Shown: positions 1 through 41,105 of the stretch, in pieces | Numbering within the stretch: the stretch's first letter is position 1 | Layout of the letters: each line of letters begins with the position of its first letter | From: a bacterium | GTDB taxonomy: Bacteria > Margulisbacteria > Marinamargulisbacteria > GCA-2716485 > JAYNIM01 | DNA: 64,000 bases | Direction: 5' to 3' | Assembly: GCA_038109055.1 (NCBI GenBank) | Contig: JAYNIM010000001.1 | Span: 427,365-491,364 of the forward strand | Notes under the pieces: generated by a model | Seen by the model: only the letters and a program-made list of their open reading frames with translations | The model's database searches: none | What the model was told of the DNA's origin: nothing | Position numbers and translations under genes: made by a program

Positions 1-621
1 TGTTATGGCTTGTTCTGAAAAACATTGATCAAAAAACTTTGGAATGACTGCAGCGTATTGTGATTTTGGGTCTTGGCGGGGTCCAAACACGTTAAAATAA
101 CGAAACCCAATTGTTTCTAGGCCGTATATCGTCTGATACATCTTTGCATATTGTTCATTTACTGCCTTACTTAACCCATAGGGGGATTTTGGGTTTAGTG
201 GCATTGTTTCAACTTTGGGTAACGTGGGTGTATCACCATATACGGATGAAGAAGAGGCATAAACAAAACGTTTGACGCCATTTAATCTGGCTCCTTCCAA
301 TAAATTTATGGTTCCGCCCACATTGTTTTCAACATATAATTGGGGTTCTTTAATGGATCGAGGTACGGAACCTAAGGCTGCTTGATGATTGATTCCATCG
401 ATATTTTTACATATCTGCCTACAAAAAGCTTTATCCCGGATATCCCCCTCTATAAAAGTAAAATTTTTGGCCTGTTCATGGGTGTTTAAATAGTCAATTG
501 TTTCTTGTTTACCAGTACTAAAATTATCTATTCCTACAACTGCATATCCTAAGGTTAGTAATTGATCTACGATATGTGAGGCGATAAATCCTGCTACACC
601 TGTAACGAGTATTTTTTTCAT
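1..621 (-). CDS. NAD-dependent epimerase/dehydratase, WbpP/TviC-like UDP-GlcNAc(A) 4-epimerase (partial, runs off left edge)
   Basis: Manual translation from ATG at 621: MKKILVTGVAGFIASH...HQAALGSVPRSI...YASSSSVYG...SPYGLSK...FRYFNVFGPRQDPKSQYAAVIPKF; GxxGxxA and YxxxK motifs. Confidence 0.88.
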   Translation of the reverse strand, partial: MKKILVTGVAGFIASHIVDQLLTLGYAVVGIDNFSTGKQETIDYLNTHEQAKNFTFIEGDIRDKAFCRQICKNIDGINHQAALGSVPRSIKEPQLYVENNVGGTINLLEGARLNGVKRFVYASSSSVYGDTPTLPKVETMPLNPKSPYGLSKAVNEQYAKMYQTIYGLETIGFRYFNVFGPRQDPKSQYAAVIPKFFDQCFSEQAIT

Positions 622-729
622 ATGGCTACAGTTTATCTAAACTTGTCTTCAAAAACAATTATGCTTCTATTAATTTTGTTAGTTTATTTAGTAAAATGCT
701 TTATCCCCCTAAATACAGCTTCTAGTGAT

Positions 730-1356
730 CAGGATTTCATAACCCCTGTCACAGCTATACCTTCCTTGCTCATCTTTTGAGCTTGGGTATAGACAAACAC
801 TTGTCTTTTGCAATCTGCTATTATAATTGTTTTTTCTGGATATTTATTTTTTAATTTTAGGCTATATTCCAAACAAACCTCCGCGTAAAGTGTCACGATT
901 ATCAGTGATTTAGGTATTTATAGAATCTTAATAATCACCTCTTGTTCACTTTTTGTGTTGCATAGCTTTTGTAATTTGAGGATTTTTTTATATTAGGCTC
1001 TTCCTTAGTCATTCTGTTTATTTTCTACAAAAGAACTTTATTTACCAGTTTAGAAAACTCTTTTTTCTTTGGCTTTGTTTATTGATATATTGTGCTTTCT
1101 TACTCTGCTAATTCTCTATTTTTTTAAGAGTTCCTTAGCTGGGATAGCGTTTACCCCTTTAATTTGATAGTTTCGTCTGATTTTTGTTCAGTCCCTTTCA
1201 TAAAAGAAACTTCTTTCATTACCCCCTTATGATCATCTTATTTATCTTTTAGGTATTTTCTGTGGATAGATACACAAACATAGCGCCTAAATAACCCACA
1301 TGAATATTAATTTTAAATGTATCATTGTAATTTAAATCAATCACAAAAACTTTCAT
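730..1356 (-). pseudogene. Probable decayed gene remnant of unknown family
   Basis: ATG at 1356 overlaps the upstream stop (ATGA) and reads MKVFVIDLNY... but stops at 1249; further short protein-like fragments downstream (e.g. LKLKNKYPEKTIIIAD). Confidence 0.35.
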
Positions 1357-2912
1357 TGTTGAGACCTCCGTCCAAATAAAAATAACTCAACACCATTAAT
1401 TCCTCTATGTCCTCTAAAACTTAAATTTATATATTCTTTTAAAGATATTAAAGAGTCAAAGCAAAGTATGTGTTTTTTAAAATTTAAATATCCCTTAACA
1501 ACTACTAAAATATCTATTGACTTTAGTTTTTTTCTAATAAAACAAAGACTATTTCTAAGACATTTTTTTAATAATGTTTGATTCATTGAGACTTTCAGCG
1601 CTAAATTTGTGTCTAACTGATTAACATAAGTATCATAATGCAATTTATTTTTACGAAATTTCATCGGTAGTCTTTTAAAATATTCCATCAATTCTTTATC
1701 CCATAAAGGACAAATCCATTCATACCCAAAAAATTCATACACGCGACACGAATTCACAATAAACTTGGCTTGACGTTCTTGCCAATTCCAACAGCTCAAT
1801 AAGGAAGAGTTGTCACCGCGATCTGAAGTTTCAGCCAAATTATTTTGAATTTTTTGCAGATACATACTTTTTTTATTTCTGCTTAATTTAAACAATAAAT
1901 AATGCTTTTTAATAATCCTTGCAATAATTTTGTCCTTATCTAATTGCTTCAATGAATACTCTATTTGACTTAAATGACCACCAGCTAAAAAATCACCCGT
2001 ATGTCCAGGCACAAATATTGAATCTTTTTCTATTAGTCTTTTTTCTTTTAATTGATGAACTGCAAAATAATCTTGAATATGTGGTAATGACACAGCTCGA
2101 TGTGAAAATTGATAATAAAACATCATATCTTTAGTACTATAAAGTCGTTTTACTATAGGTTTATAATCAACAAATACCCATTTAAACCGTAAATAATCGG
2201 CTACTTTTTTAGAAATTACTGTCTCGGAATTATTTAAAGGGCCGTATGAAAAACAACATACATTAGTATAATTTAACTTTTTTAATTTTAGAGCAATCAA
2301 TCTAGAATCATAGCCACCACTTAAAGGTATTACCAATTGTCGGCCTTTCGCATAAGCAACTAATCGTTTTATTGCATTTGTTACACAACTATCTAATTTA
2401 GCTCTTGCCTCTAGTTCAGAGTAATTCACAAAATCTTGATGTAAGTATTGATAATAGGTACTTAATTGACACAGTTTGTCTTTAATATATACATATTGAC
2501 CAGCCTGACATTGAAAAATATTTTCATATATTGTTTCATTACCAGTAACATATCCTGTTGCAAAAAATTCATGCTTTGAAACTTGATCTTTTTTAAGAGT
2601 ATAAGATTTTTTTAAAAAATCTGGATTATCACCTATCCACTGATATTTTTCAGAAAAAAATAATGGATGTGATCGAATTGAATCAACCGCAGCATATATT
2701 CTGCCTTGATCTTTAATAACAACTGAAAAAAAACCGTTTGCACCTTTAAGTCTTTCTTCAAAATCTTCTTTATTTTTTATATCTATGAAATAATCTACTA
2801 ACTTTTCTTTTTCATATAGGTCATTTTTAGAATCAAATAAAAATCCTTTGGCCCAAATATCTTTTGAATGGTACCAATTGAAACCATTATTAATTGTTAA
2901 ATCAATTTTCAT
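1353..2912 (-). CDS. Asparagine synthase-family amidotransferase/amide ligase lacking the N-terminal catalytic Cys
   Basis: PLSGGYDSR PP-loop, PGHTGDFLAG, ERQAKFI motifs; no N-terminal Cys-Gly-Ile. Confidence 0.8.
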   Translation of the reverse strand: MKIDLTINNGFNWYHSKDIWAKGFLFDSKNDLYEKEKLVDYFIDIKNKEDFEERLKGANGFFSVVIKDQGRIYAAVDSIRSHPLFFSEKYQWIGDNPDFLKKSYTLKKDQVSKHEFFATGYVTGNETIYENIFQCQAGQYVYIKDKLCQLSTYYQYLHQDFVNYSELEARAKLDSCVTNAIKRLVAYAKGRQLVIPLSGGYDSRLIALKLKKLNYTNVCCFSYGPLNNSETVISKKVADYLRFKWVFVDYKPIVKRLYSTKDMMFYYQFSHRAVSLPHIQDYFAVHQLKEKRLIEKDSIFVPGHTGDFLAGGHLSQIEYSLKQLDKDKIIARIIKKHYLLFKLSRNKKSMYLQKIQNNLAETSDRGDNSSLLSCWNWQERQAKFIVNSCRVYEFFGYEWICPLWDKELMEYFKRLPMKFRKNKLHYDTYVNQLDTNLALKVSMNQTLLKKCLRNSLCFIRKKLKSIDILVVVKGYLNFKKHILCFDSLISLKEYINLSFRGHRGINGVELFLFGRRSQQ

Positions 2913-4086
2913 AATCTTTTAAAACGTCATTATATACAGATTCAATTTGGTTAAAAACAATATCATAACTAAAATTTTTAATTGCAAATTTTCGTATTTT
3001 TATAGAATCAAAATGCCCTCTTGTTTGTATTGCTTTTATTAACCCTTTTTCAAGTTCATCGATACTATCTGGCCCAACTATAATTCCTGTATCAGAAGTA
3101 ACGATATCTTCACTAACAACAGATGTAGTTAGAACAGGAACCCCCATTGCCATCGCTTCACAAGAAACGTTGGGATGGCCCTCAGCTAAACTAGCTAAAA
3201 CCAAAAAACTGGATTGTTCAAGCTCTTGCTTAACTTGATAATGAGACTGGGCCCCTAAAAAAATCACATTATGTTTTAGTGAATAAAATGAAACAAGTTT
3301 TTCCAACGCTTTACGATCTTGTCCGTCTCCAATAATTGTTAATAAAGTATCTGGATACATTTTGATGATTCTTGAAAATGCGTGAATCAATAAATGTACA
3401 CCTTTTACAGGTGTTAATCCGGCGACTAGTAAAAAACGCCGTTCTAATGCCGGCTTTTTTTTAAAACTTGGTTTAAAAAAATCAATATCAACAATGTTAG
3501 GAATAACTTTAAATTTTGTATTTGATTTAGGTAAATATGATTTTAACTTTGGCTCCATCACCTTACTCAAAGGCAAAATATAATCTGTATTTTCTAATCC
3601 ATATTTTAGTAGAGAATCATACCAGGGTTGGAATAAAGACTTCGCAAATTTAGTTTGGTCGGTGAATCTACCACGATGCTCCGATAAAACGTATGGAATG
3701 TTATAGCGCCCTTTTACTTTTCTTCCCACAATACTCCCCCAGATAGCACTGTGAACATGCATCAAATCAGGCTTACCTTTTTCATTAATATAGCGTTTGA
3801 CCAACTTCATCATTAATATTACCCATAGCTTTTGTTGTAAACGCGCTAACTTTGGCAATGACCAAGCATGCATTCTTATTACAAATAATCCATTTTCATT
3901 GTTAGCCGTGACTTTAAAAAAAGACGTAAACAGTGATTTTACATTTAAATTTCGTACTGAACGCTGCTCAACATAAACTATCCCAACTTTCCACCCCCGA
4001 CTCTTCATTTCCTCCCATCTTTTTCTAAAAAATGAACCGCCGTCATATGGAGGATACCAAGATGGAATAACTAAAATATGCTTCAT
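2902..4086 (-). CDS. Glycosyltransferase family 4
   Basis: LVIPSWYP, KGVHLLI, EGHPNVSCEAMAMGVPV (EX7E); start MKHILV at 4086 gives ATGA overlap with upstream gene. Confidence 0.9.
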   Translation of the reverse strand: MKHILVIPSWYPPYDGGSFFRKRWEEMKSRGWKVGIVYVEQRSVRNLNVKSLFTSFFKVTANNENGLFVIRMHAWSLPKLARLQQKLWVILMMKLVKRYINEKGKPDLMHVHSAIWGSIVGRKVKGRYNIPYVLSEHRGRFTDQTKFAKSLFQPWYDSLLKYGLENTDYILPLSKVMEPKLKSYLPKSNTKFKVIPNIVDIDFFKPSFKKKPALERRFLLVAGLTPVKGVHLLIHAFSRIIKMYPDTLLTIIGDGQDRKALEKLVSFYSLKHNVIFLGAQSHYQVKQELEQSSFLVLASLAEGHPNVSCEAMAMGVPVLTTSVVSEDIVTSDTGIIVGPDSIDELEKGLIKAIQTRGHFDSIKIRKFAIKNFSYDIVFNQIESVYNDVLKDYEN

Positions 4087-9444: not shown

Positions 9445-11298
9445 TTAAGTCGCGTCTATTTTGAAGCTAATTTCTGAAATAATTTGTTTTTTTTGAACAT
9501 CCGTCAAGCCATGCTTATTCATTGCAGTTTCAAGAGACTCTGAATGAGCGAGCTCACAGCTATGACAATATAAACCAAAACGATTTAAAACTTTAACCGA
9601 ATCACACCCATATGTTCTTATTATTTCTTCTACTGAAGTGTTTAAGAGTACACCCCCCTCCTTTAAATTTTTATCTGATTTTTTATAATAAGGAGCTTGC
9701 AATAATCGCCAAAAGCCAACTTTATATTCATCGTTTTCTCTAAAAAAACGACACCAATATCCAACAAATGCTTCATCCCATGACAACTTCTCATCTAAAA
9801 TTAGATTAAATATGCAAATTGGAATGTTAATTTGTATGTGCAAATCTTCTAATTGCACCGGCCCTAAATATCGAAGCTTACAATCTTTGATTTCTATATA
9901 TAAGGTTTTTAATGTCTCATAGTCCATATTTGTCAAATTAAATCTAATAGTAGTATTTTCACAAAACTTAATTTGAGGACAATTATTTAAATCTAAAAAA
10001 TACTTCCTGGACACTTCCTCATTAAACACATTATTTCTCTTAAAAAGCTTATTAAATTCACGACTATTAAACTCTTTAATTGCAAACTTTTTCAGAATAT
10101 CTTTGTTATAAATTTCTTTTGACAGTTTTTTCTTTCTCTTTATTTTTAATTTTTCAACATTCCACTCATCACCTGGAAACCAGTCAATTACTTTAAAGGA
10201 CTCCTTATTTAGTCTCTCTTTAATATCAAATATATTGTTTCTTATGATTTTCTCTAGAAATTCAATGTGAGTTGGATGACAAAATGTTATATGACTCGCA
10301 AAAGGAACAAAATATTTTGCGCCATATATATCCATTGCATGCCTAATTTGTTCAATACGTCCATTATTTGAATCTACCATAAATTGATGAGCATCTTTAT
10401 TTGAAACACTATTCCAAGTTAAGGGGTACCCCGAGGCTCCAAAAGAAAAAGTGGATGAAACAACATCAACTGGAAATACTTTATTCACTAAATTTTGATT
10501 AATCCCGGCATCGTTTAAATTTAGCCATTTAAAACTACCAAATTGAAAAAGTATTATACTATCATTCCAAACGCCCTTTGGCTCGAAAAAGGTCACTTCA
10601 AGATCTGACTCTATAGACATTTTTTTCCCAAAACTTGGAATCAAAATATGTTTAAATCCTAATTTTTCCAAACTATTTTGCATACGTTGATTTGGAAAAT
10701 CAGGAATTAATATAGGAATATTTTTATTAATCTTTTTTAACGTAGGAATATGAAAGTGATCAGAATGTTCATGTGTAATTATTATATAATCAACAACAAT
10801 TTCTTCTGGAAGTATAGTATTTTTAGGGTATTGATACCATGATCCCAAAAATGCCGGGCCACTTAACCAAGGGTCTGTCATAATTTTTGTCCCTTTATAA
10901 TTAAACTCTATGCACGCATGTGAATGAAGTACACAATTTAAACCTGACACCCAGTGATCCGATTTTTTTTTAATATCATTTTTTCTAATTAAGTCAGTAT
11001 TTTTAACAAAAAGCTCATTCCCTTCCTTTAAAATAGGAACATTTCTTAACTCTTGATTTTCAATATTTTTTGACTTTCCTGTATGCTTATCAAATTTCCA
11101 AAAATGTACTGGACATACTAAACAATCATCATTCAATACAACTTTTCCACCCATATGCGGACATTGATTAGATAAAAGTTGAAAGCCACGCTCTTCTGAG
11201 TAAACTAAAAAATAATTTTCTTTGTAAATTTTAATATTTAAAGGACACTGTTCTTTAATTTCTGTATTAGCAATTTTAATTTTTTCGAATTGCGTCAT
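9445..11298 (-). CDS. CMP-N-acetylneuraminate hydroxylase (CMAH) homolog: Rieske + metallo-beta-lactamase fold + C-terminal CxxC (DUF1858-like) domain
   Basis: Rieske CPH...CPVH; SHAC...DPWLSGPAFLGSW; THEHSDH; GASGYPLTW; PFAS...HP; SWDEAFVGY...FW, all colinear with animal CMAH as I recall it; tail GLYCHSCELAHSESL. Confidence 0.85.
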   Translation of the reverse strand: MTQFEKIKIANTEIKEQCPLNIKIYKENYFLVYSEERGFQLLSNQCPHMGGKVVLNDDCLVCPVHFWKFDKHTGKSKNIENQELRNVPILKEGNELFVKNTDLIRKNDIKKKSDHWVSGLNCVLHSHACIEFNYKGTKIMTDPWLSGPAFLGSWYQYPKNTILPEEIVVDYIIITHEHSDHFHIPTLKKINKNIPILIPDFPNQRMQNSLEKLGFKHILIPSFGKKMSIESDLEVTFFEPKGVWNDSIILFQFGSFKWLNLNDAGINQNLVNKVFPVDVVSSTFSFGASGYPLTWNSVSNKDAHQFMVDSNNGRIEQIRHAMDIYGAKYFVPFASHITFCHPTHIEFLEKIIRNNIFDIKERLNKESFKVIDWFPGDEWNVEKLKIKRKKKLSKEIYNKDILKKFAIKEFNSREFNKLFKRNNVFNEEVSRKYFLDLNNCPQIKFCENTTIRFNLTNMDYETLKTLYIEIKDCKLRYLGPVQLEDLHIQINIPICIFNLILDEKLSWDEAFVGYWCRFFRENDEYKVGFWRLLQAPYYKKSDKNLKEGGVLLNTSVEEIIRTYGCDSVKVLNRFGLYCHSCELAHSESLETAMNKHGLTDVQKKQIISEISFKIDAT

Positions 11299-12360: not shown

Positions 12361-14022
12361 ATGTCTATCATAAAAAAGATATTGAAAAGATTCAAAAATA
12401 AAATTCATAAAAAAAGAGTCGTTCCAAAATTAAATCTCATAAACGATTACGCTCATAAAGAATATTATAATCAATATTATTCAAAAAATGCAGAAACTAC
12501 CAAAATTTTAAAAAAACTTAGTTCCGAATATAAGGCTAAGCCTCTTGACAGTAATCTTAAAATTCTATCTCTCATCGCTGTACCCGGAAATTTTACTCAG
12601 ATATATTATCAACAATTTATAGCTTATGCATTAGCATTAAGAGATTGTAATATTTCTCACTTAACTTGTTCTGGCTCTGAAAACCAATGTGCGAGTGGCA
12701 GAATACTACAGCCCTCTCAATCATGTTCAGATTGTTTAAAATATGGTCAAAATTTTCTTGATAACGTTGTTAACAATAACCAAATCAAATCTTATGCCGA
12801 CTTCAACCTTGATACTACTTTAACTTCAGAATTTGAAAAAATAGGGACATTATCTTTTGAAGAACTTAGAAAATATACTTATAAAAATATTATGTTTGGA
12901 AAATATATTGAAGAGGCTCTTAATGGTTATTTTCTAAATTGTCACCTCTCTCAAAATCCTATAGTAATACAAAAATTCAAAGAAATGTTAATTTATGATT
13001 TAACCGCATATAATGCTTTTATTAAATACCATCATCAGGAAACCTTTGATCGAGTCATTATGTGTGGTGGAGTTGGGCCTGGTTATAGTGGAATTTTAAA
13101 TGCGTGTAAACAAAGCAATATCCCTTGTTTAACTTGGGAAGTTTGGGAGGGAAACACATTAAATTCAGTTGTATGGACCAAAAACGATATTGCCTCTAAT
13201 TTTAAAGTTTTTAACAACAAAAAAGAATTAGATAATTATAGTATTGACCATACAAAGCAAAAAATGTGTACTGATTATTTAATGGAAAGAGTTAAGGGTA
13301 GTAAAAACACGCTATCTTATAATAACCAAAATACAACTTTAGAAAATGTAATTTCATCAAAATTTGGTAATATTTTTAATAAACCGTTCACCCTTCTTCT
13401 GACCACTGTTCCTTGGGATGCTAATTGTTTTAGAAAAGATCATCTATTTAAATCTCAATATTATTGGATATTAGAAACTATTAAATTTTTTAAAGAAAAA
13501 CCAGAGGAAACATTAGTTATACGTGCACATCCTGCAGAATCACATAAATCAGTTAACCCTTATCGATATACACAAGAAACGATACTTTCCTTTCTAAGGC
13601 AGCATATAGATGTACTCCCTGAAAATATTATTTTTATTGATTCCAATGATGATGTTAGTACTTACGCTCTTTTTCCTTATACTAAAGTGGCATTAATTTT
13701 TGCAACTACAACTATTTATGAACTTATCTATAATAATATTCCGGTTATATGTGCATCAAAAACTCATCATATAAATATGGGTATAAGCATAGACCCAAAA
13801 AACAAAAAAGAGTATTTCAATTTACTTGATAATATAGATTCTTTAAAAGTGACCGATGAACAAAAATCCCGTTCACTTAAATATGCTTATAAGTACTTAT
13901 TTGAACGAATGATTCCTTATTCACAAATATTAAATACACGCTGTCTAGATGATTTAAAGACTGGCTCGAATATTCATCTTGATAAAATTTGTAGAGATAT
14001 TATCGTTGCTAATAATACCTGA
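12361..14022 (+). CDS. Capsule polysaccharide biosynthesis protein (KpsS/Capsule_synth-like GT-B) with N-terminal 4-Cys motif
   Basis: VPWDA, IRAHPAE, TTTIYE...PVI motifs; C-x6-C-x11-C-x2-C near the N-terminus; divergent from neuB. Confidence 0.6.
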   Translation: MSIIKKILKRFKNKIHKKRVVPKLNLINDYAHKEYYNQYYSKNAETTKILKKLSSEYKAKPLDSNLKILSLIAVPGNFTQIYYQQFIAYALALRDCNISHLTCSGSENQCASGRILQPSQSCSDCLKYGQNFLDNVVNNNQIKSYADFNLDTTLTSEFEKIGTLSFEELRKYTYKNIMFGKYIEEALNGYFLNCHLSQNPIVIQKFKEMLIYDLTAYNAFIKYHHQETFDRVIMCGGVGPGYSGILNACKQSNIPCLTWEVWEGNTLNSVVWTKNDIASNFKVFNNKKELDNYSIDHTKQKMCTDYLMERVKGSKNTLSYNNQNTTLENVISSKFGNIFNKPFTLLLTTVPWDANCFRKDHLFKSQYYWILETIKFFKEKPEETLVIRAHPAESHKSVNPYRYTQETILSFLRQHIDVLPENIIFIDSNDDVSTYALFPYTKVALIFATTTIYELIYNNIPVICASKTHHINMGISIDPKNKKEYFNLLDNIDSLKVTDEQKSRSLKYAYKYLFERMIPYSQILNTRCLDDLKTGSNIHLDKICRDIIVANNT

Positions 14023-16132: not shown

Positions 16133-17563
16133 TTATCTTCCTATCAAAATATTCTTTTTAACTAATTTTTCTTTTAACTTTGGTAAGAGGCGTGTTACTT
16201 GACTAACATGAATACTTAACACTAACGTAAGACAACATAAGATACCATCTAATTTGAAAGTATATATCTGACTCAAAAGAATGCATACTGCAAACATACA
16301 TATGTAGGGTAGAGATATAAACTCAATAAATACGGGCAAGTTCAATAACTTTCGCTTTATAATACCCATTATTCCCGTAACAATAGTCACTGAGCCTAGT
16401 GATAATACGCCTCCAACTAATCCAAATTTTGGAATAAGTAAAATAGAAAGCCCCATGCAAGTGCAGCCTGATACAATCGAAGATAGTAAAAAATATTTTG
16501 TGCATTTATGATATAATATTCCTGTGAAAACTCCGCTTAATCCTGCATCAGCTAAAATAAAACAACTTAGATATAATATAATCCTATATGCATCTGTATA
16601 AACTCCGTTAGATAGCCATGTTATGAATGATTCCCCAATAAAATAAAAACATATACACCCACAAAATACTACGTAAAACCAAGCAAAAAACATCTGTCTA
16701 AATTTCGAGAAATCTTTATTACCTTTACTTAATGCCTGAAGTAATTTTGGAGAATAAACTTTAGAAAAATGCCCCTCTACAGTGGCAAACATACTATATA
16801 ATCGTAATGCCCAATTATATAATGCGAACATTTGAATAGTGTACAACCCGCTAATAACAAATTTGTCAATTTTTGTTCGTGTTAGATTAAACAAAGCCCG
16901 CAAGGTTAAAGGATAACCGATTTTAATTGTTTCGATATAAAAGTATTTTTTAAATGATACCGTTAGATATGGAGTTAAAATAAATAATTTAATTGCGTTT
17001 ATGATAGAACACGTAATCGATGATCCAATAATTACAAATTTAACATTTTGTGTATACACAATAAGACCAACGTATATTATTGTTGTCAAAAATATTTCGA
17101 ATAGTTTAATTTTAGAAAACAAAACTGCTTTCTCAGTTAAAACAATCCAATTTGAAAATACTGGTGTAATACGATTCATAACCACCATCAAAGCCATCCA
17201 AGGAAAAAGTACTATAATAATTGGAGCTGAATCACTAGCCATTAATGTAAATACCCATTTATAAAATGGAAACATAACAATAATAGACCCAATAGCCATG
17301 ACTGCCCCTATAAATAACAACGTAAATAATAGTTGTTTTTGTTCATCTTTTTTTAAATCAAACCATAAACTACCTATTACATACCCAACACCATATTCAC
17401 ATAATACAGTAAAGGGAACTTGACATAAATTAAATAGAGCAATTAAACCAAACTCCTCTAACCCAAAATAACGTGTTGTAATTGGCAACGTGATAAATGG
17501 CAATGCATTTATAATAATTTCAGGAAACATGTATAAGCTAAAATTCTTAACAAACTTTTTCAT
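16133..17563 (-). CDS. wzx: Wzx-type oligosaccharide flippase
   Basis: Multi-TM 476 aa; LPFITLPITTRYFGLEEFG, DKFVI, LLIPKFGLVGG patterns. Confidence 0.82.
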   Translation of the reverse strand: MKKFVKNFSLYMFPEIIINALPFITLPITTRYFGLEEFGLIALFNLCQVPFTVLCEYGVGYVIGSLWFDLKKDEQKQLLFTLLFIGAVMAIGSIIVMFPFYKWVFTLMASDSAPIIIVLFPWMALMVVMNRITPVFSNWIVLTEKAVLFSKIKLFEIFLTTIIYVGLIVYTQNVKFVIIGSSITCSIINAIKLFILTPYLTVSFKKYFYIETIKIGYPLTLRALFNLTRTKIDKFVISGLYTIQMFALYNWALRLYSMFATVEGHFSKVYSPKLLQALSKGNKDFSKFRQMFFAWFYVVFCGCICFYFIGESFITWLSNGVYTDAYRIILYLSCFILADAGLSGVFTGILYHKCTKYFLLSSIVSGCTCMGLSILLIPKFGLVGGVLSLGSVTIVTGIMGIIKRKLLNLPVFIEFISLPYICMFAVCILLSQIYTFKLDGILCCLTLVLSIHVSQVTRLLPKLKEKLVKKNILIGR

Positions 17564-18029: not shown

Positions 18030-18701
18030 CTAAGAAACATAATCCCCATTATAATTAATCATTGCAACACTTCTGATACTCTTAACTTTGGCAAGCCTAT
18101 CTATTATTGATGTATCATTTCGTTTTTGTCTCATTTCTAATATCAGTTCTATTTCGTCATTTGTACGTATTTTTGATTTAATATTTAATTTTTTTAAACT
18201 CGCTAAAGCCTCGTCAATTTCAGCATTGTTTTTATTAGGATAATTTATAACTAATAGATAAGGTAAGCGTCTTAAAATCTTAATCTTAGTTATTGCAAAC
18301 AGTAAGCCGCCTATAACAAGACTGCCAATAATGGAAACCTTATATAAACCAACGCCGTTTGCCATGCCTATACTAATAGCCCAAAACATAAATACAGTGT
18401 CTAAAGAGTCTTTGATGGCTGTACGAAAACGAACAATCGATAACGCGCCAACCATTCCCAGAGAAAGTAAAAAGTTGGTGCTTATAGCCATAATAATTAA
18501 AGACGTAATGACAGCCACCATTATTAATGAAAGGTTGAAGCTCTTGGTATACAACACTCCTTGATACGTTTGTCTATAAATTGCGTATATAAACAAGGAA
18601 ATAATGACCGTTATAGTTAGTGATAAGGCTATATCCATGATAGTAAGATTAGTTGACAATGCAGAAGCAGAACTTTTAAAAGTTGATAATATTTCGTCCA
18701 T
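18030..18701 (-). CDS. DUF4956 membrane protein
   Basis: SLGMVGALSIVRFRTAIKD signature; start MDEIL at 18701 (TAATG overlap, GGAGG RBS). Confidence 0.85.
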   Translation of the reverse strand: MDEILSTFKSSASALSTNLTIMDIALSLTITVIISLFIYAIYRQTYQGVLYTKSFNLSLIMVAVITSLIIMAISTNFLLSLGMVGALSIVRFRTAIKDSLDTVFMFWAISIGMANGVGLYKVSIIGSLVIGGLLFAITKIKILRRLPYLLVINYPNKNNAEIDEALASLKKLNIKSKIRTNDEIELILEMRQKRNDTSIIDRLAKVKSIRSVAMINYNGDYVS

Positions 18702-19423
18702 TACTGATCCTCCCAAGGATTTTCTTTATAAAACTTTCTACAGATTGCATATTTTGAAATTGCTGAACGTGCACAATGTGAGCCGTCTAAAGCTTGCTTA
18801 ATAAATGCTGGTAAAAATTTTTCATATTTTACTTCCATAATAACTAAATGTTGATCGCAGGCACTGATAGTAAATGATTTTTTATCAAAAAGATCCTCAT
18901 TAGAGTAGCTAAGTTTTAAATTCTTGTCAAATGTCACCCTTACATTTCCCTGTTTAAATACATACGCTTCTCGCACATAATCTGTGATAATAACTGGTTT
19001 TAATAGCTGTGTTTTTTGAATGATTAAGAACTCATTCAGAAGTTCTTTTTTATCTGAAAGTTTCTTATTACTATGGTTAGAATTAACTAATAGGGATTCG
19101 TATTGCTTTCGATCTATTGATTGTGCCTGTTTAAAAATAAACTGATTATGCTTCCCTTTTTTTTCAAGTTTTATCACTGCATCGCTATGGTTGTATATTC
19201 TAATACGATATTTGTATCGATCTAGTACTCCCGATAGTTTTTCAAACAGCGCGGAGTTGTACATGTCATCAAAATAAAGACTTCTTAAATGATAATTACC
19301 ATCTTTGTCAGCATGCTGATCAGGTCTCATTAATAACTTTATACGTTGCTTTAAACAATGATATTGGTAATGACTAATAAAATATTTAACCTCATGCCTA
19401 AAAGTAACTTTTTTTTTAGTCAT
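18701..19423 (-). CDS. VTC (polyphosphate polymerase) domain protein, CYTH/TTM fold
   Basis: RHEVKY, RSLYFD, RYKYRIRIY, LEKK, YVREAY, RVTFD, MEVKY, SKY motifs. Confidence 0.88.
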   Translation of the reverse strand: MTKKKVTFRHEVKYFISHYQYHCLKQRIKLLMRPDQHADKDGNYHLRSLYFDDMYNSALFEKLSGVLDRYKYRIRIYNHSDAVIKLEKKGKHNQFIFKQAQSIDRKQYESLLVNSNHSNKKLSDKKELLNEFLIIQKTQLLKPVIITDYVREAYVFKQGNVRVTFDKNLKLSYSNEDLFDKKSFTISACDQHLVIMEVKYEKFLPAFIKQALDGSHCARSAISKYAICRKFYKENPWEDQ

Positions 19424-22133
19424 ACGCCATCCAGTTTAAATTTAGAAGCTTATCGATATCTTTAGCTGCCATAATTTGCTTATTGACCTTATTATCAGCT
19501 AACACAAATACTTTAGCTCCATTTTTTATACTGTGCTTCTGCTTAAGATCGTCACGGCTAATTCCGTACAATTTTGGCACGCCAAAAAAGTACTTTTTAA
19601 GATACATCTCTATTCCAATGGTATTATTCCTAAAAATATTTTTTTCGATGATCGTTTGAGAATTATCTTTAATTGTAATAGCGGATCTATTATTATCAAA
19701 TATGTTTTTTGATACGTATACTTTAGAACTTTCACCCACAGACATTCCCTTATCTAAAAATCCAGATATATAACAGTCTTTTACAATGATCTCCGCACCG
19801 CTAAGATCAAGCCCATCACCGTTAGGTTTTTGATTCGGAATTTTGGTTCCGGTGAATTTAAAGGTTGTATTGCTAACATGTCCATGTGACACATCTAAGT
19901 CTAGCTGATCAGCACTATTATCTAAAAAAGTATTATTTTTTAAATTTATTTTAGCATATTTTATATTTACCCCATCATCAGCAAAATTATGATGAATATT
20001 ACTGTGTTGAATACTGACATATTTATGTGAATATAATGATAGTGCCCCGCTTAAAAACTTTCCATTTACGGTTGCTTCACTCCCTCCAGAAATATCTAAA
20101 TAAGAAATTTCGCATTGGGTGGAATGTCTATCCCCTACCATTGCAACGACCCCAAAAGGATCTTTTCCTTGTTGATTTTGAATAACAATTGGGCTTTCTT
20201 TTGTTCCTCGTAGTTGTGTATTACCCTGAAATAATAGTGAGACACTAGGTCCCAAGGTGATGGTAACGCCTTCTTCTAGGGCTACTGCCACACCATGTGG
20301 AAAAACAATGGTTTTGGTTATTAGGTATGATCCTTTTTTGATCAAAATTTGTTTGTATCCTAATTTCACCATTGATAATTCTGGCGTATTTTTCATAAAA
20401 GATGTTATGTCAGTTACACGATGCTCTTTGCTTGAAAATCCAACTTCCTGACCAACATATGTGTGAATATTATTATCTTTGACTGGATGATTTGTGAGTG
20501 TATTTTTAAAGGTAATGGTTGTATTTTTCAACTTATATCCTTTTGGAAGGTCTAAAATCTCATACTTATATCGTCTTTTTTCAATATCTAGTTCTTCAGT
20601 CAACCCTAATTGATACAAGTGTGTGCTGAAAAATGAACTTAAATCTTGTGTTTTAGATTTTATTGGAAATCGGATAGTGCTTATTTTTTTTGTTTGCAGG
20701 TCTTTAATTCGTACTCTCCTTAGAGGTTGATTGCCCTCTAAAATAAAAGCGGTATTTTGAATTGCTGCGTTGCTATCTGGAACAATTTCTAGTCTTAGTT
20801 TGTTATTGTCTGGCCAAATATTTACATACATCATTGTGTAATTTAGGTAATGTTTTAATTTTGAAATATTATTTAAGATAATAGATTTTTCCTTATCTGC
20901 TTGTTTCTTATAATATTGTTCTTTTGGATCAATAGTTATCAGTGGAACAAACTCATTATAAACATTGTCAACAGTTTCTCGAATAAATGTCTCATCTTTT
21001 AAAAATTCAGCAATATATTTATTCCTTAAATTTCGATATGTATCAGACTCTATTAACTTTTTAAAAATAATATTGTTATCGTATTTATTTTTAAACATGT
21101 TATATCTATTGCCATAACTATACAGTTTCTTTTCAAAATTTGCTGCATAATTGTCGTATATTAATTCGTTCGCAGCTTCTATTCTAAGAAATGGAAAAAA
21201 TTTGCTGTTAGATGTGTTATATAAAAGCCGCATATTATCGCCGGAAAAAACATGTGAATTGCCATAAAATGTACGTAACGCATCTAACTTAGCGGTAAGA
21301 GGAATGTCCATGTGTACTGAAAGACTTTCATATGATGGCTGAGTGTACAACTGCCTATATCTCTCGAGTTGCCCCACTTGTTTTCCCGAAAAGTTCCTAA
21401 GTAAGGTATTTGAAAGTTCATTAATAAACGGAGTAATGTGTGTCTCATTATATTGATGTCCCCATGATTCTTTTGATTTGATTAAATCAACACCAGCCAT
21501 ATTGTTTTTCTCTAATAATGTTTTAGATAATTTTTCTTCTACTAAATAAAGGCCTTGATTAATCCCGTTAATCTTCAACTGACATAAAAATATATCGATA
21601 TCCCAACCAATAAAGTGTTTTAAAATTCGATAATTCACCAGTGTTGATAAGGGTAGTTGAGTGGGGATAATAAAAGAAAATCGTTTCATTTTTTTATGAT
21701 ACTGATCTTTTCTTAGTTTGATTGCATAGGATTTCTTTTCATCTAAATAATGGGAGCCATGCAATTTTATTTTTGCCTTTATCTCCTTTTCGTTAATATA
21801 TATCTTACATTTTTGATAGCTATTTTCACTGTTGTTGTGATTATCAATGTATATTCGATGAAAGGGATTTTTATTGTATTTATTTGCTGCAAGAGTAATT
21901 GTATCCTTCATATTGGCATAAGCCTTTTTAGGAAGTTTAATTGAATAAGTTGGAATTGATGTTAACTTATATTTTAAAATAAATGTTCTTAGTTCTGTTG
22001 ATATAAATCTATATAGTTGGATTGGAGGAGCGCCTTTCACGTGACAGATACTTATTACAAGTACAGAAAAGAAGGTCATTCCAGATATCAATAAAATATA
22101 TCCTATTAGAAATATCTTTTTGAATTTATTCAT
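19416..22133 (-). CDS. CotH-kinase family protein with C-terminal right-handed beta-helix
   Basis: N-terminal hydrophobic anchor; KIKLHG, KKSYAIK, INGINQGLYLVEE, H...DNMRLLYN; C-terminal DDGVN/DQLDLD/GDGLDLSG/DKGMSVGE repeats. Confidence 0.75.
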   Translation of the reverse strand: MNKFKKIFLIGYILLISGMTFFSVLVISICHVKGAPPIQLYRFISTELRTFILKYKLTSIPTYSIKLPKKAYANMKDTITLAANKYNKNPFHRIYIDNHNNSENSYQKCKIYINEKEIKAKIKLHGSHYLDEKKSYAIKLRKDQYHKKMKRFSFIIPTQLPLSTLVNYRILKHFIGWDIDIFLCQLKINGINQGLYLVEEKLSKTLLEKNNMAGVDLIKSKESWGHQYNETHITPFINELSNTLLRNFSGKQVGQLERYRQLYTQPSYESLSVHMDIPLTAKLDALRTFYGNSHVFSGDNMRLLYNTSNSKFFPFLRIEAANELIYDNYAANFEKKLYSYGNRYNMFKNKYDNNIIFKKLIESDTYRNLRNKYIAEFLKDETFIRETVDNVYNEFVPLITIDPKEQYYKKQADKEKSIILNNISKLKHYLNYTMMYVNIWPDNNKLRLEIVPDSNAAIQNTAFILEGNQPLRRVRIKDLQTKKISTIRFPIKSKTQDLSSFFSTHLYQLGLTEELDIEKRRYKYEILDLPKGYKLKNTTITFKNTLTNHPVKDNNIHTYVGQEVGFSSKEHRVTDITSFMKNTPELSMVKLGYKQILIKKGSYLITKTIVFPHGVAVALEEGVTITLGPSVSLLFQGNTQLRGTKESPIVIQNQQGKDPFGVVAMVGDRHSTQCEISYLDISGGSEATVNGKFLSGALSLYSHKYVSIQHSNIHHNFADDGVNIKYAKINLKNNTFLDNSADQLDLDVSHGHVSNTTFKFTGTKIPNQKPNGDGLDLSGAEIIVKDCYISGFLDKGMSVGESSKVYVSKNIFDNNRSAITIKDNSQTIIEKNIFRNNTIGIEMYLKKYFFGVPKLYGISRDDLKQKHSIKNGAKVFVLADNKVNKQIMAAKDIDKLLNLNWMAYD

Positions 22134-22873: not shown

Positions 22874-24218
22874 TTATCCTTTGATATTTTTTAGTATGAC
22901 TTGATTATATCTTTGTACAGTTTTCCCATCAAATACCTCATCCTTTGAAAGAAGGTTTTGATCATATTTAAAATCTGTTTCTTCAATTAATTTTTTACTG
23001 ATAACATTTTCTAACTTATTTTTCACTTTAACTATTTCAATATTTTCTATGCGCATATACATGTCTGAATTTAAATTATAAAAATCTACAATGATACTGG
23101 GAATGCCATAATAAATAGCCCATGTAACTGTAGAAGAAAATGTGCCAATAAATAAATCAGAGATACATAATGTGCTAGCTAAATCTTCTATCAAAATTTT
23201 GCACTTATATTTCTTTTCTAGAAATACATATTCTTTTTTTATTCATTTTTGGATGTAATGATAACAGTATATTTTGCCCAGACTGTACTAATTTATCAAC
23301 AAGAAAATGAATTTCTTCCCAATGTTTTTTTTCTGATAATATATGATGCTCTTTTAGTTGTGGCAAAGAGCAAATAATCACTTTTTTTTCATTATTTATA
23401 TTATATTTATTTCTTAATTTTTCTTTATTTGATTTATTATTGCTATAAAAAAGAGTATCATTCATTACATCCCCAACAATTACTAGCTTATCTTTATTTA
23501 CTTTGTTTCTTTTATATCTTTCCGCAGTATCTCGATGATCAACACACACCACATCTAAAAGTCCCCCACCAATATACCAAGGAAAGGTTGATAATGTGCT
23601 AAACCATTTAAGTGCTAAAAATTGAGACGGTTTATAAAAATTGTAATATGCATTTTGAAAAAACCAGAATCTATCAGGGCATTTAAAAAATAGATAGTGA
23701 AAAATTATTGGACTATACCATTTTTTTTTGTATATATACGAACTTTTAGTACAACTATCTGCATCTGAATAAGCCATGTATGGAGATAGTGTTTTTATCT
23801 GAAGACTTTTAGCTATTTTAATCACAACTTGTTCTATATTGGTATGACGGTCACCATTTAAAAAAATTAAATGAAATTTTTCTTCTTTTATTTTTGGATA
23901 TAAATATAAATATTGTTTATTTAAGTTCTTAAGTTCAAAAAAGGCATCAATCCATAAGCTAATTGAAAAGAATATTCTTCTTATAATTTTCACTATCAGG
24001 CTAAATCTTACAAATCTAATGCATCTATAGACAATTGTTGATGGATATTCTACATTACCTATAATAATTTTTTACTTAGAAAACTTATGTGTACTATCTT
24101 CTAACAAAATTGTAAATTTTAACCTTGGATTTATTTTTTCTAGGTTTCTTATAAAAGATATTTGCGCATCAAATCGTTGTGGCATATTCCCTACCACAAG
24201 TATTTTTATTTGCTTCAT
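22874..24218 (-). pseudogene. Disrupted paralog of the 27004..28341 putative nonulosonate transferase
   Basis: ATG at 24218; in-frame TAA at 24072-24074; +1 frameshift in an A7 run (T7 at 23234-23240); shares LNGDRH, PWYIG, LPQL, SLHPKM with the intact copy. Confidence 0.88.
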
Positions 24219-24230
24219 GTTTACATGGGT

Positions 24231-24389
24231 CTAATCATCTAGTCCATCTTTATTTACGGTATGCCTAAGTTTAAATTCGCCTTTACTATCTCTCCCCCAT
24301 ATATGAGGAGATCTAAATTTATCACAAAGCTCCATAAACTATTTTGGCTCTATTTCTAAATAATCCATAATTTCTTTGAAATATATACG
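24231..24389 (-). pseudogene. Relic C-terminus of an N-acetyl-sugar amidotransferase (paralog of 28431..29711)
   Basis: RIYFKEIMDYLEIEPK*FMELCDKFRSPHIWGRDSKGEFKLRHTVNKDGLDD* versus intact RYFNEFLEY...LCDTFRSPHLW...KLRHTVNKDGVDD. Confidence 0.88.
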
Positions 24390-27003: not shown

Positions 27004-28341
27004 TTATGTTTTTAAATTTTCTAGCAAATCAGAATATCTTTGAATTACCTTACCGTCAAAAACTTTATCTTTAGATAATTTCATCCAATCACTTTTAAAA
27101 TCTTTTTTAATATTAAGATTTTTTTTAATTTCATCCAAAAGTTTATTTTTATTTTTAGAAAAAGTAATATTGTCTAAACTATTAAACCAAGCACCATATA
27201 AATTATAATAGTCTAAAATAATACTATTTATTCCTAAATAAAAAGGCCATATCATAGTGGATGAATTAATTGAAAGAAATAAATCTGCTATTGGCAAACT
27301 CTCAGCTAAGCTTTCTTTCAGAATAATGCATTTATATTTTTTTTCTAAAAACCTATATTCTTCAAATTGCATTTTGGGATGTAATGATAATAAGACAGAT
27401 TCTTTGCTCTTACAGCATGTATCCACTAAAAAATTGATCTCTTCCCAATGCTCCTTTTTGGATAGTGTTTTCTGTTCTAGTAACTGAGGTAATGCACACA
27501 TAATAATTTTATTTTTAGGATTTAAATCATATTTATCAATATAGTGTTGTTTTATATTATTTTTTGATGATTCATAAAGAATTTGATGGTTAATATCACC
27601 TATTATTTTCAATTTCTCTTCAGGTACTCTATTTTCTTTATATCGATTAAATGTCATTAAACTATCAATACACACAACATCTACTAATCCATTTCCTATG
27701 TACCAAGGATACTTGCTTAAAACACCGAACCATTTTAATGCTAAAAAGATATTAGGTGTATAATAAAAATATTTTTTACTTTGGTATGTAAAAACGTGAT
27801 CTTTATAAAGAAAGAACAATAATTTAACAATTAATGGGCTATAAAACTTTAGTTGAAGTAAATACGAATTTGATATTAAACTTACATCGTCTGAAAGACA
27901 ATAATAAGGGCAGATACTTTTGATATTTAATTTTTTAGCAATTTTTAATATTACAGCTTCCGTGTTTCCGTGTCTGTCTCCGTTTAAAATAATAGCGTCA
28001 AACCTTTCTTTTTTAAATCTTACTAACAACCAATGATAATATTTTTTAAGTTCATGATATAAAAATATAGCTTCAATTAATACGCTTACAGAATAGAAAG
28101 TTCTTCTAATTAATCTTAACAAAAATGTTTGTCTTATTTCAGTAAAAAAAAAATTAAAAAACCAATTATTTCTTAATTTTTCCAATAAAATAACTTTATA
28201 TGGCATTACATCTTTAATCATAGATTCAGAGTCTATTAAAAAATAAAAATCCAAATTTTTATTATAGCTAGACAGCATTTTAACCAAATCTAACTGAACT
28301 CTTGTTCTTTGTTTCATACTGCTGTGGACTAATATTTTCAT
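27004..28341 (-). CDS. Hypothetical GT-B-like protein, candidate legionaminate transferase
   Basis: Located within the Leg operon; GDRH, IIGD, LHPK, SST motifs. Confidence 0.5.
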   Translation of the reverse strand: MKILVHSSMKQRTRVQLDLVKMLSSYNKNLDFYFLIDSESMIKDVMPYKVILLEKLRNNWFFNFFFTEIRQTFLLRLIRRTFYSVSVLIEAIFLYHELKKYYHWLLVRFKKERFDAIILNGDRHGNTEAVILKIAKKLNIKSICPYYCLSDDVSLISNSYLLQLKFYSPLIVKLLFFLYKDHVFTYQSKKYFYYTPNIFLALKWFGVLSKYPWYIGNGLVDVVCIDSLMTFNRYKENRVPEEKLKIIGDINHQILYESSKNNIKQHYIDKYDLNPKNKIIMCALPQLLEQKTLSKKEHWEEINFLVDTCCKSKESVLLSLHPKMQFEEYRFLEKKYKCIILKESLAESLPIADLFLSINSSTMIWPFYLGINSIILDYYNLYGAWFNSLDNITFSKNKNKLLDEIKKNLNIKKDFKSDWMKLSKDKVFDGKVIQRYSDLLENLKT

Positions 28342-38801: not shown

Positions 38802-39662
38802 ATGATGATAACTTCAATCTTAACGTTACTAAGACCTCATCACTATATAAAGAATTCATTTATATTTCTTCCTCTTTTTTTTGGATTAAAAGTATTTGAG
38901 CTTCATCTTATCTATCAACTGTTGCTTTCTTTTATTGGTTTTTCATCAATCGCAAGTGCTGTATATATTTTTAACGATACACTGGATATAAAGTTAGATC
39001 AAAATCATCCTATTAAAAAATATCGTCCCTTGGCTTCAGGTTCTGTTCCTCTTAAATTGGCTTTTTTCTTGGCAACTCTTCTTTTACTTTTTGGGTTTAG
39101 TATTGCAATTTTCCAACAAATCGCTTTCATTTTTCTTTTTTATGTGCTGCTTAATATTGTCTATTCGCTCAAACTTAAACATATTCCTATTATTGATGTG
39201 TTTATTATTGCAATAGGATTTGTCATTCGTTTATTCATTGGCGCAACTGTCACTAGCGTTGAATTATCGATATGGATTGTCATTATGACATTTTTACTTG
39301 CACTTTTTTTAGCTTTCTCTAAACGAAAATGTGACTTAGTTAGTTTAAAAGGAACCTCCAATGCCCGACCTGTTCTTGTATCATACAATCACGAATTTTT
39401 AAGTACTTGCATGGCTATTATGGCCTCTGTGGTCATTGTATCTTATATCATGTACACAACCTCTTCCTCAGTTCTTGCTAGTACAAATTCTGACTATGTT
39501 TATTTCACTAGTATTTTTGTATTATTTGGGATTTTAAGATACCTTAGCATCACTTATTTTGAAAAAACTACAGATAACCCAACTAAGATTCTCCTACATG
39601 ATATATGGTTACAGCTTAGTATTATTGGATGGCTGATTAGTTTTGCAGTTATGTTATATTAA
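38802..39662 (+). CDS. UbiA-family polyprenyl-phosphate phosphoribosyltransferase (DPPR synthase-like)
   Basis: RPHHYIKN, YIFND..D...D..HP.K..RPLASG, YSLKLKH, KRK; multi-TM. Confidence 0.88.
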   Translation: MMITSILTLLRPHHYIKNSFIFLPLFFGLKVFELHLIYQLLLSFIGFSSIASAVYIFNDTLDIKLDQNHPIKKYRPLASGSVPLKLAFFLATLLLLFGFSIAIFQQIAFIFLFYVLLNIVYSLKLKHIPIIDVFIIAIGFVIRLFIGATVTSVELSIWIVIMTFLLALFLAFSKRKCDLVSLKGTSNARPVLVSYNHEFLSTCMAIMASVVIVSYIMYTTSSSVLASTNSDYVYFTSIFVLFGILRYLSITYFEKTTDNPTKILLHDIWLQLSIIGWLISFAVMLY

Positions 39663-40996
39663 TGGACACGATATCTAACTGGGGAAATACCCCTAAAATC
39701 CGTGCGTCATTAATTCCCTTTCATCAATTCGATCAACTTAGAGAAGTGATTCATCATACTCAACATGTCATTCCTAGAGGTATGGGTCGTTGTTATGGAG
39801 ACAGCTCCCTCAACGCCACCATTATTTCAACAACAGAATTTAATCAAATTACAACATTTGATTCACAAAGGGGTGTCATCATTTGCCAATCAGGGGTTAC
39901 GCTTGACACTATTTTAAAAAAAATCATTCCTGCAGGATGGTTTTTGCCTGTAACTCCTGGTACTAAATATGTAACATTAGGCGGAGCTGTTGCTGCAAAT
40001 GTTCATGGAAAGAATCATCATGTTCATGGCTCGTTATCACAGCACATCTTGTATTTTGATCTCTTGATGTCAGATGGAAAGATCGTGAGATGTTCAAAAA
40101 ATGACCTTTCTGATTTATTTTATATGACCTGTGGAGGTATGGGCCTAACAGGCGTTATTATCAACATAGCTATGCAGCTGATCCCTATTAAGTCTTCCTA
40201 TATTCGACAAAAAACAGTTCGTGCAAAGAATCTTGATGCCATTATGACCCTTTTTGACTCTCATCATCATTGGACGTATTCTGTCGCATGGATTGATTGC
40301 TTAGCAAAGGGCTCATCTCTTGGACGATCCATCCTCATGCTTGGGGAACATGCTCATGAAAATGAGCTGACAGAGTTACACTCTGAACCGCTATTAACAT
40401 ACTCCTGTAAACGTAAAAAAAGGATTCCTTTTTTTCTACCTAACGGTTTCTTAAACACTTGGACTGTTCGGCTGTTTAATACAGTATACTTTCATATGAG
40501 TCCTAAATCAGACGCTACGAAAATTGTTGATTATGATTCTTTCTTTTATCCTTTGGATCATATTCATGATTGGAATAAATGCTACGGGAAACAAGGCTTT
40601 ACCCAATATCAATGTGTATTTCCATTGAATACTAGTAGAGACGGTCTTAGAAAAATATTGGAGAGGATATCTCAATCTGGCCAAGGATCATTTTTGGCAG
40701 TATTAAAACGATTTGGAAATGAATCCCTACCAGGATTATCTTTTCCAATGGAAGGGTATACACTTGCTCTTGACTTCCCAATGACACCTAAAACATGTCT
40801 TCTAATGGATAAATTAGATACTATCGTCAACACATATAATGGTCGCTTATACTTGGCTAAAGACTCTAGAATGAGTGCCGATTTTTTTAAATCCACCTAT
40901 AAAGATTTTGATCAGTTTGTTTCACTTAAAAAGAATATCGATGCTAGAAAGCTCTTTGAATCTCTGCAATCGAGACGATTACATATCAACTCCTGA
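39662..40996 (+). CDS. DprE1-like FAD-binding oxidase
   Basis: RGMGRCYGD, PVTPGTKYVTLGGAVAANVHGKNHH, YSVAWID, FFYPLD, GYTLALD, YLAKD. Confidence 0.9.
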   Translation: MDTISNWGNTPKIRASLIPFHQFDQLREVIHHTQHVIPRGMGRCYGDSSLNATIISTTEFNQITTFDSQRGVIICQSGVTLDTILKKIIPAGWFLPVTPGTKYVTLGGAVAANVHGKNHHVHGSLSQHILYFDLLMSDGKIVRCSKNDLSDLFYMTCGGMGLTGVIINIAMQLIPIKSSYIRQKTVRAKNLDAIMTLFDSHHHWTYSVAWIDCLAKGSSLGRSILMLGEHAHENELTELHSEPLLTYSCKRKKRIPFFLPNGFLNTWTVRLFNTVYFHMSPKSDATKIVDYDSFFYPLDHIHDWNKCYGKQGFTQYQCVFPLNTSRDGLRKILERISQSGQGSFLAVLKRFGNESLPGLSFPMEGYTLALDFPMTPKTCLLMDKLDTIVNTYNGRLYLAKDSRMSADFFKSTYKDFDQFVSLKKNIDARKLFESLQSRRLHINS

Positions 40997-41105
40997 GTAT
41001 ACGTGAAATGCGGTTATCACATCGCAATTTATGATTTTTTTTTCAGTAAGACTCTGATTATTAAATTTTGCTTTATATTCTGACTATATGCCATAATCAG
41101 AAATC

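Follow-up and report, generated by a model that had tools for sequence, protein, structure and literature searches.

A gene trio for CotH/beta-helix, VTC and DUF4956 proteins in a Marinamargulisbacteria glycan locus: a possible route to polyphosphate-dependent envelope phosphorylation

Genes for a CotH protein, a polyphosphate polymerase and a DUF4956 protein (and DUF4832) are known as accessory genes of Gram-positive pel loci, and a regulatory role has been proposed for them by Whitfield et al. (bioRxiv 10.1101/768473). A set of VTC, membrane protein and CotH genes is visible in NELoc-2 of Clostridium perfringens (PMC2879425), and SIR_1592-1594 of Streptococcus intermedius are the CotH, VTC and DUF4956 genes of its pel locus (PMC12345266). 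Deletion of either the DUF4956 or the CotH gene in S. intermedius reduces aggregation in sputum medium by more than 50%; the amount of Pel goes up without DUF4956 and down without CotH, and Pel is still made in all mutants (PMC12345266). In PMC12345266 the arrangement is stated not to have been found outside Pel loci. Here we describe such a trio in the 64,000-nucleotide stretch of DNA from 427,365 to 491,364 of contig JAYNIM010000001.1 (assembly GCA_038109055.1, Marinamargulisbacteria), hereafter the window. Contrary to the published statement, the trio occurs outside Pel loci, in 30 loci. An earlier note on this stretch, made from its sequence alone, missed that the gene set had already been published.

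The trio described here shares with the pel accessory genes the same three families, their contiguity and their position beside polysaccharide genes; the pel CotH is predicted to be secreted, and the pel DUF4956 protein is described as an MgtC membrane domain plus ACT domain. The differences are in host, locus and architecture. The host is a diderm, as its genome (1.8 Mb, 93% complete) carries lpxA and two Omp85 genes, and the trio lies in a Wzx-type nonulosonic-acid glycan locus, not in pel. The CotH part is joined to a beta-helix in place of FN3, and no DUF4832 hydrolase lies next to the trio; neither pel genes (pelDEAFG) nor DUF4832 were matched among the flanking open reading frames scanned. 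All three frames are intact and lie on the minus strand in the order 905, 240 and 223 amino acids, coupled by overlaps of 8 and 1 nucleotides, the values given in the earlier note. It had also placed the trio just upstream of wzx. A wzx-like gene with a domain score just under the cut-off indeed follows 467 nucleotides downstream on the same strand, without overlap. The features are:

19416..22133, minus strand: CotH-fold/beta-helix protein of 905 amino acids with a single anchor (kinase-like domain, beta-rich linker, right-handed beta-helix); open reading frame list, Pfam and structural model.
22035..22124, minus strand: N-terminal hydrophobic anchor of this protein, residues ~4-33, preceded by a Lys-rich start and predicted to run N-in and C-out; hydropathy and charge bias in relatives.
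20844..21824, minus strand: CotH/PKL-fold domain, residues ~104-430, with conserved G126, S135, K139, N189, E200, E208, H294 and N300; profile and model.
21234..21254, minus strand: catalytic loop H294-x5-N300, with His at the position of the essential Asp228 of Bacillus CotH; profile alignment.
21177..21185, minus strand: R317-I318-E319 at the WDxD (Asp251) site, the acid shifted by one residue; profile alignment.
19494..20417, minus strand: parallel beta-helix, residues ~573-880; model and profile.
18701..19423, minus strand: soluble VTC/TTM protein, 240 amino acids; Pfam VTC, E 1e-37.
18030..18701, minus strand: DUF4956 protein, 223 amino acids when counted from an ATG at 18701 that follows a GGAGG site; Pfam DUF4956, E 1.6e-9.
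16133..17563, minus strand: wzx-like flippase (context); Polysacc_synt, E 2.7e-6, just below the family cut-off.

A genome scan yielded 48 loci, and 30 of them hold kinase, beta-helix, VTC and DUF4956. Seven others contain kinase and beta-helix without one or both partners (six of these are on short or truncated contigs), one contains beta-helix and VTC, and ten beta-helix only. VTC and DUF4956 are thus both present in 30 of the 37 loci with kinase and beta-helix, and the clustering of the trio is far beyond chance. The loci span Proteobacteria, Bacteroidota, Patescibacteria, Chloroflexota, Omnitrophota, Verrucomicrobia and archaea. Among 121 genomes of the host's phylum, VTC and DUF4956 are found in the same 8; the CotH/beta-helix protein is present in 7 of these and absent from the remaining 113 (the carriers are spread over eight families, and kin are not independent). 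A clear glycosyltransferase or nucleotide-sugar gene stood among the nearest two open reading frames per side in 9 of 14 loci, in a survey of 55 of the 83 listed flanking frames that had no background control. The earlier view of the trio as recurrent is supported by these counts; its genes keep together and are mostly found in glycan loci.

The three families do not evolve to the same degree together. Across 27 cassettes, two of them nearly identical, the Spearman correlation of distances is 0.79 between VTC and DUF4956 and 0.25-0.49 between the outside protein and either of them, which makes VTC and DUF4956 the core pair and their outside partner more exchangeable. The host genome itself keeps a second, divergent trio (contig C4, 99686-104721) within a different glycan locus, where DUF4956 comes first, then CotH/beta-helix and then VTC; the two trios are ~18-28% identical to each other. 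A gene for a calcineurin-like phosphoesterase lies directly upstream of this second trio. On another contig, of 9.6 kb, two trios stand head-to-head and converge at their VTC genes (locus L030, 694-9080).

Assignment of the 905-residue protein to CotH depends on its relatives and on its model. Pfam recognizes only Beta_helix in it (residues 721-844, E 4.4e-13); CotH (PF08757) does not match the protein itself, matching 5 of 12 aligned relatives, and phmmer against PDB found no sequence. A profile of 141 relatives matches the CotH of Bacillus cereus (5jd9, E 1.9e-28), and in Foldseek the AlphaFold2 model (mean pLDDT 79) matches 5jda with E 1.7e-11 and a TM-score by target of 0.71. A single hydrophobic segment is present, at the N-terminus, and the same kind of anchor is found in 109 of 136 Met-starting relatives. 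Net positive charge is greater before the anchor in 85 of these 109, with 12 showing the opposite and 12 ties; the bulk of the protein is therefore predicted to face outward. Profile, Foldseek and hydropathy together uphold the earlier description of a membrane-anchored CotH-family protein with a beta-helix domain, which has no Pfam CotH match of its own. The extracytoplasmic location of the CotH domain is supported as a prediction by this charge bias and the diderm host.

Residue roles in CotH are taken from PMC7821199, where the D228Q and D251A variants of the Bacillus protein are inactive. In the profile alignment, His294 aligns with Asp228 and Asn300 with Asn233. Among the 141 relatives His294 is kept in 125, Asn300 in 139, K139 in 128, E208 in 138 and S135 in 133, and the kinase-site residues persist at a mean identity of ~22%. 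FPFLRIE (residues 313-319), which the earlier note saw in place of WDxD, does occupy that position. Read without gaps, the alignment, which is one of profiles and not a structural superposition, puts Ile318 at Asp251, Arg317 before it and Glu319 one residue past it, so that the WDxD acid looks shifted to Glu319, not lost. By our own definition the relatives fall into motif classes at the Asp251 site: R-x-E (68 of 141), R-D (25), x-E (11), aromatic-Asp (32) and other (5). The aromatic-Asp state requires 4 changes on a FastTree tree, compared with a shuffled mean of 29, a result that speaks for inherited subtypes and for no more than that. The second CotH copy of the host genome combines His with aromatic-Asp.

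Nearly all members thus have an acidic residue either in the metal-binding position or next to it, which gives the impression of a remodelled site; it is atypical yet conserved, and probably not dead. The earlier suggestion that catalysis may be atypical stands as far as the site is altered and conserved, and the larger change, His at Asp228, had been missed. With Asp228 missing, the protein is not a canonical CotH kinase. Fold, catalytic-loop Asn and N-lobe motifs are common to it and to the Bacillus spore-coat kinase CotH (PDB 5jd9/5jda); it differs in His at Asp228, in Ile at Asp251 flanked by Arg317 and Glu319, in the added membrane anchor and beta-helix, and in lacking any spore context. 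E200, which aligns with a Glu of CotH in the strand-hinge region, is present in 110 of the 141 relatives and replaced in 31; we take the aligned Glu to contact adenine in CotH. The locus adds a subtype with a His plus R-x-E kinase site, not a new system. No description of a His/beta-helix type of CotH was found in a literature search, with most subscription papers outside its reach. The lipocone paper makes no mention of CotH or VTC, and the CotH fusion of a Zetaproteobacteria paper is an unrelated one.

The most conserved part of the large protein is its beta-helix, where the earlier note had missed an invariant Asp/Lys site. Residues D720, D742, D745, D747, D773, D776, D794, K795, S798, G800, E801, K822, K846 and K847 are invariant, and the seven Asp, one Glu and four Lys are present in 141 of 141 sequences. 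At least 97% conservation is reached by 26 of 308 positions in the beta-helix, and in the kinase domain by 3 of 327, a difference that stems in part from the ranking of the set by a profile dominated by the beta-helix. Since a kinase-only homolog search gave five proteins, too few for an unbiased control, proteins chosen by adjacency to VTC and DUF4956 were used instead. All six have the 12 Asp/Glu/Lys residues intact, and H294 and N300 are kept in all five that have a kinase domain. In one locus (L062, genome G060, 1-3447), an anchored beta-helix of 480 amino acids has its own gene between VTC and the CotH gene, with the Asp/Lys set intact. Parts of the motif also exist outside the trio, given the ten beta-helix-only loci, eight of which hold other, more distant beta-helix proteins.

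The best structural match of residues 573-880, a beta-helix of the AlgG/AlgE/lyase type, is AlgG (Z 25.8, root-mean-square deviation 3.1, 270 aligned residues, 13% identity). AlgG/AlgE epimerases, Pel9A and tailspikes share the right-handed beta-helix fold at Z 21-26 and 8-17% identity, a likeness at the level of fold with no match at the level of sequence. Many glycan-acting beta-helices are among the matches; the fold itself shows no function. With the beta-helix as query, phmmer against PDB gave nothing useful, and an Atlas search returned unnamed beta-helix and CotH/beta-helix clusters only.

The VTC protein alone gave nothing useful in phmmer against PDB, whereas in a search with a 32-sequence profile Vtc4 comes first (E 1.6e-21) and Vtc2 and Vtc3 score behind it. 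Nine residues of Vtc4 hold Mn2+ and triphosphate, namely K200, R264, R266, K281, Y359, R361, E426, S457 and K458 (bioRxiv 2023.01.27.525886). They map to K13, R73, R75, K89, Y149, R151, E197, S223 and K224, each present in 32 of 32 sequences; K224 corresponds to K458, by which Vtc4 is told apart from the inactive Vtc2/3. At four sites that are basic in Vtc4, TTM hydrolases carry glutamates (PMC4641920). In our own motif mapping, which is not a superposition, three of these four sites are basic (R9, K98, K199) and E11 stays Glu. With all nine Vtc4 residues kept and three acidic-patch sites basic, the protein looks like a polymerase, and by its residues it probably is one for polyphosphate. The earlier claim that VTC makes polyphosphate is thus favoured over a triphosphatase, with E11 and a plant precedent considered below on the other side. 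The yeast VTC complex (PDB 3g3q, 8i6v, 7ytj) resembles the present system in its TTM tunnel, where every catalytic residue and most of the basic residues on the exit side are conserved, and in having a membrane-protein partner. The protein described here differs as a stand-alone 240-residue domain without SPX or membrane helices of its own, with an MgtC-like partner and with additional conserved R69, K71 and E11.

In the model of the DUF4956 protein (pLDDT 87), five helices, the third one short, make up the hydrophobic part, predicted to hold 4-5 membrane helices, and are followed by a C-terminal alpha/beta domain. This domain resembles ACT folds, and its top Foldseek match is the C-terminal domain of MgtC (E 0.009). 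Profile matches to MgtC are weak: NF007431 gives E 2.7e-6 and 27 bits, with 214 as its cut-off, and Pfam MgtC (PF02308) matches 9 of 33 relatives weakly. Likeness to the MgtC/SapB family consists of these matches and the ACT-like domain; DUF4956 differs in scoring far under the cut-offs, in an invariant RFR of its own and in being always paired with VTC in the sampled genomes. In this motif, R91-F92-R93, both Arg are invariant (n=33); K97 is kept in 32 of 33, and a second basic patch lies at 43-53. Both patches would be on the cytoplasmic face if the ACT domain is inside. No conserved charge occurs in mid-helix among the 33 relatives, so that a polyphosphate pore is not evident from the monomer. 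The lists from the fold search contained no Vtc1-type chain; the ACT domain filled these lists and the membrane part was barely probed. Prediction of a complex of two DUF4956 copies with VTC, run without controls, scored 0.01 (mark 0.32) and weighs neither for nor against their contact. DUF4956 is more likely than not the membrane partner of VTC, and the chance that it also serves as the export route for polyphosphate is a little under even. The earlier idea of a polyphosphate channel is not borne out by the likeness to MgtC plus ACT and the missing mid-helix charge.

The genes, folds, conserved residues and co-occurrence are direct observations. From them we liken the trio, by inference, to a split VTC system. 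A kinase fold that faces outward needs a donor other than cytoplasmic ATP. We propose that the cytoplasmic VTC protein would make polyphosphate from ATP, that the MgtC-like DUF4956 protein would anchor VTC and pass polyphosphate across the inner membrane, and that the CotH/beta-helix protein, predicted to be periplasmic, would use it to phosphorylate an envelope glycan or envelope protein. The Asp/Lys cluster of the beta-helix may bind metal and a polyanion (polyphosphate or acidic glycan), while the kinase-fold site of His294, Asn300 and Glu319 may carry out the transfer, possibly via a phospho-His step. We hold the whole route, from polyphosphate synthesis by VTC through hand-over by DUF4956 to phosphoryl transfer onto the envelope, as a tentative proposal with chances somewhat below even. 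Much the same caution applies to the single step of phosphate transfer from polyphosphate by the outside protein, which may or may not occur and is given a little less than half a chance. In a wider generalization, which we consider speculative and rather unlikely, bacteria and some archaea would possess a split VTC-like third polyphosphate route with MgtC-fold export. It would power ATP-independent, His-type envelope phosphotransferases, possibly with a phospho-His relay, fed by the metal-polyphosphate cluster of the beta-helix.

Several observations weigh against the proposed route. Nothing in the locus gives a sign of the acceptor's identity. Asp228, essential in Bacillus CotH, is absent from the 905-residue protein. 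The acidic-patch residue E11 is retained in 31 of 32 VTC proteins, and AtTTM3, whose tunnel is near-identical to that of Vtc4, makes no polyphosphate (PMC4641920). DUF4956 resembles MgtC and ACT proteins, and its conserved basic residues are found only at helix ends or in loops, which is partly explained by the positive-inside rule. No aggregation defect is reported for the VTC deletion of S. intermedius (PMC12345266); this, together with the opposite shifts of Pel in the DUF4956 and CotH deletions, is not what a linear pathway predicts. The literature search, with the reach given above, found no biochemical study of any bacterial trio or VTC member. Five of the 14 surveyed loci, again without background control, have no clear glycan neighbour, and in genome G046 (L056, 4058-5472), which gave no match to CotH, a VTC/DUF4956 pair lies outside any glycan locus. 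This pair adjoins PGA_cap, DUF4886 and amino-acid biosynthesis-like genes.

Polyphosphate itself could be the product, with the outside protein binding, trimming or tethering metal-polyphosphate for charge, as a Ca/Mg store or for cross-linking of a matrix; the beta-helix would then do the work and the kinase fold would have a binding or allosteric role. The excess of highly conserved positions in the beta-helix, its existence as a separate anchored gene in L062 and the loss of the canonical catalytic Asp speak for this reading. We nevertheless regard it as unlikely, as even very distant members retain H294, N300, K139, E208 and the acid at the Asp251 site, CotH in Gram-positive pel cassettes carries FN3 and not a beta-helix (PMC12345266), and part of the beta-helix conservation comes from how the set was ranked. 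Alternatively, the trio may be a regulatory device without export, in which a sensor or pseudo-enzyme on the outside sends its signal via the MgtC-like/ACT protein to the cytoplasmic TTM enzyme, whose product (polyphosphate or nucleotide) tunes glycan synthesis. Such a device would fit the MgtC-like membrane domain with its ligand-binding ACT fold, the opposite effects of the deletions on Pel, made in all mutants (PMC12345266), and the role proposed by Whitfield et al. (bioRxiv 10.1101/768473). It leaves unexplained, however, a fully conserved kinase-like site and an enzyme-like Asp/Lys site outside, and no regulator is consistently present among the neighbours scanned (55 frames, 14 loci); we judge it improbable.

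Bacillus CotH uses ATP (PMC7821199) and 5jda holds AMP, which makes an ATP-dependent ecto-kinase conceivable, with DUF4956 supplying or recycling nucleotide and VTC acting as triphosphatase or recycling enzyme. The strand-hinge residue E200, kept in most relatives, and the retention of E11 in VTC agree with it. Against it stand the 31 relatives in which E200 is replaced, the basic residues at three of four hydrolase acidic positions of VTC and the conservation of K224 (Vtc4 K458), and we find this reading quite improbable. Finally, the CotH domain in the window might be an inactive product of decay, and the cassette might simply be carried along by a hypervariable locus, in line with the absent Pfam CotH match, the change of both canonical Asp positions, and the frameshifted gene copy and wbuX remnant directly upstream. 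The same changes, however, define a whole clade (the R-x-E type, 68 of 141), and the three genes, none of them disrupted, are tightly coupled; decay is accordingly very improbable.

The polyphosphate route proposed above touches on several questions: how extracytoplasmic phosphoryl chemistry is powered, what CotH does in non-sporulating bacteria and what MgtC-fold domains conduct. A 2026 overview table still gives VTC4 as eukaryotic only (PMC13318637). A stand-alone bacterial VTC protein of 240 residues with an intact Vtc4 site makes the step of polyphosphate synthesis testable. The host genome offers a clean case, because neither PPK1, PPK2 nor PPX was found in it at 93% completeness and two independent cassettes are kept. 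Mutual exclusion of PPK1 and VTC was considered and rejected: PPK1 occurs in 0 of the 8 VTC genomes of the phylum, an uninformative absence since only 5 of all 121 have PPK1.

The surroundings of the trio form a long nonulosonic-acid glycan locus with two NeuB/NeuC/cytidylyltransferase sets, LegB/LegC, WbuXYZ and the wzx-like gene. The GC content of the trio (0.30-0.32) agrees with that of this locus and not with that of the genome (0.375), so that no separate recent insertion of the trio is indicated. A promoter scan was near chance (42 vs 32.9 +/- 5.6), as was a terminator scan (1 vs 2.2). Directly upstream of the trio, at 22874-24383, lies a broken paralog whose separate frames are 41-53% identical to the 445-residue gene at 27004-28341. 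A piece of the wbuX 3' end (56% over 50 amino acids) precedes it, and the two are what an old segmental duplication or replacement left behind. On the opposite strand of the glycan locus, a frame of 553 amino acids at 12361-14022 has no Pfam or NCBIfam match. Between neuB and neuC, at 9445-11298, a protein of 617 amino acids fuses Rieske, metallo-beta-lactamase-fold and hybrid-cluster redox-disulfide parts, an architecture which we take to be CMP-sialic-acid hydroxylase-like; it could hydroxylate nonulosonic acid. Genes for a UbiA-family phosphoribosyltransferase, a DprE1-like oxidase and a DprE2-like reductase, with scores under the curated cut-offs, are located at 38802-41840 and make up a putative lipid-linked arabinofuranose-type set in a diderm genome.

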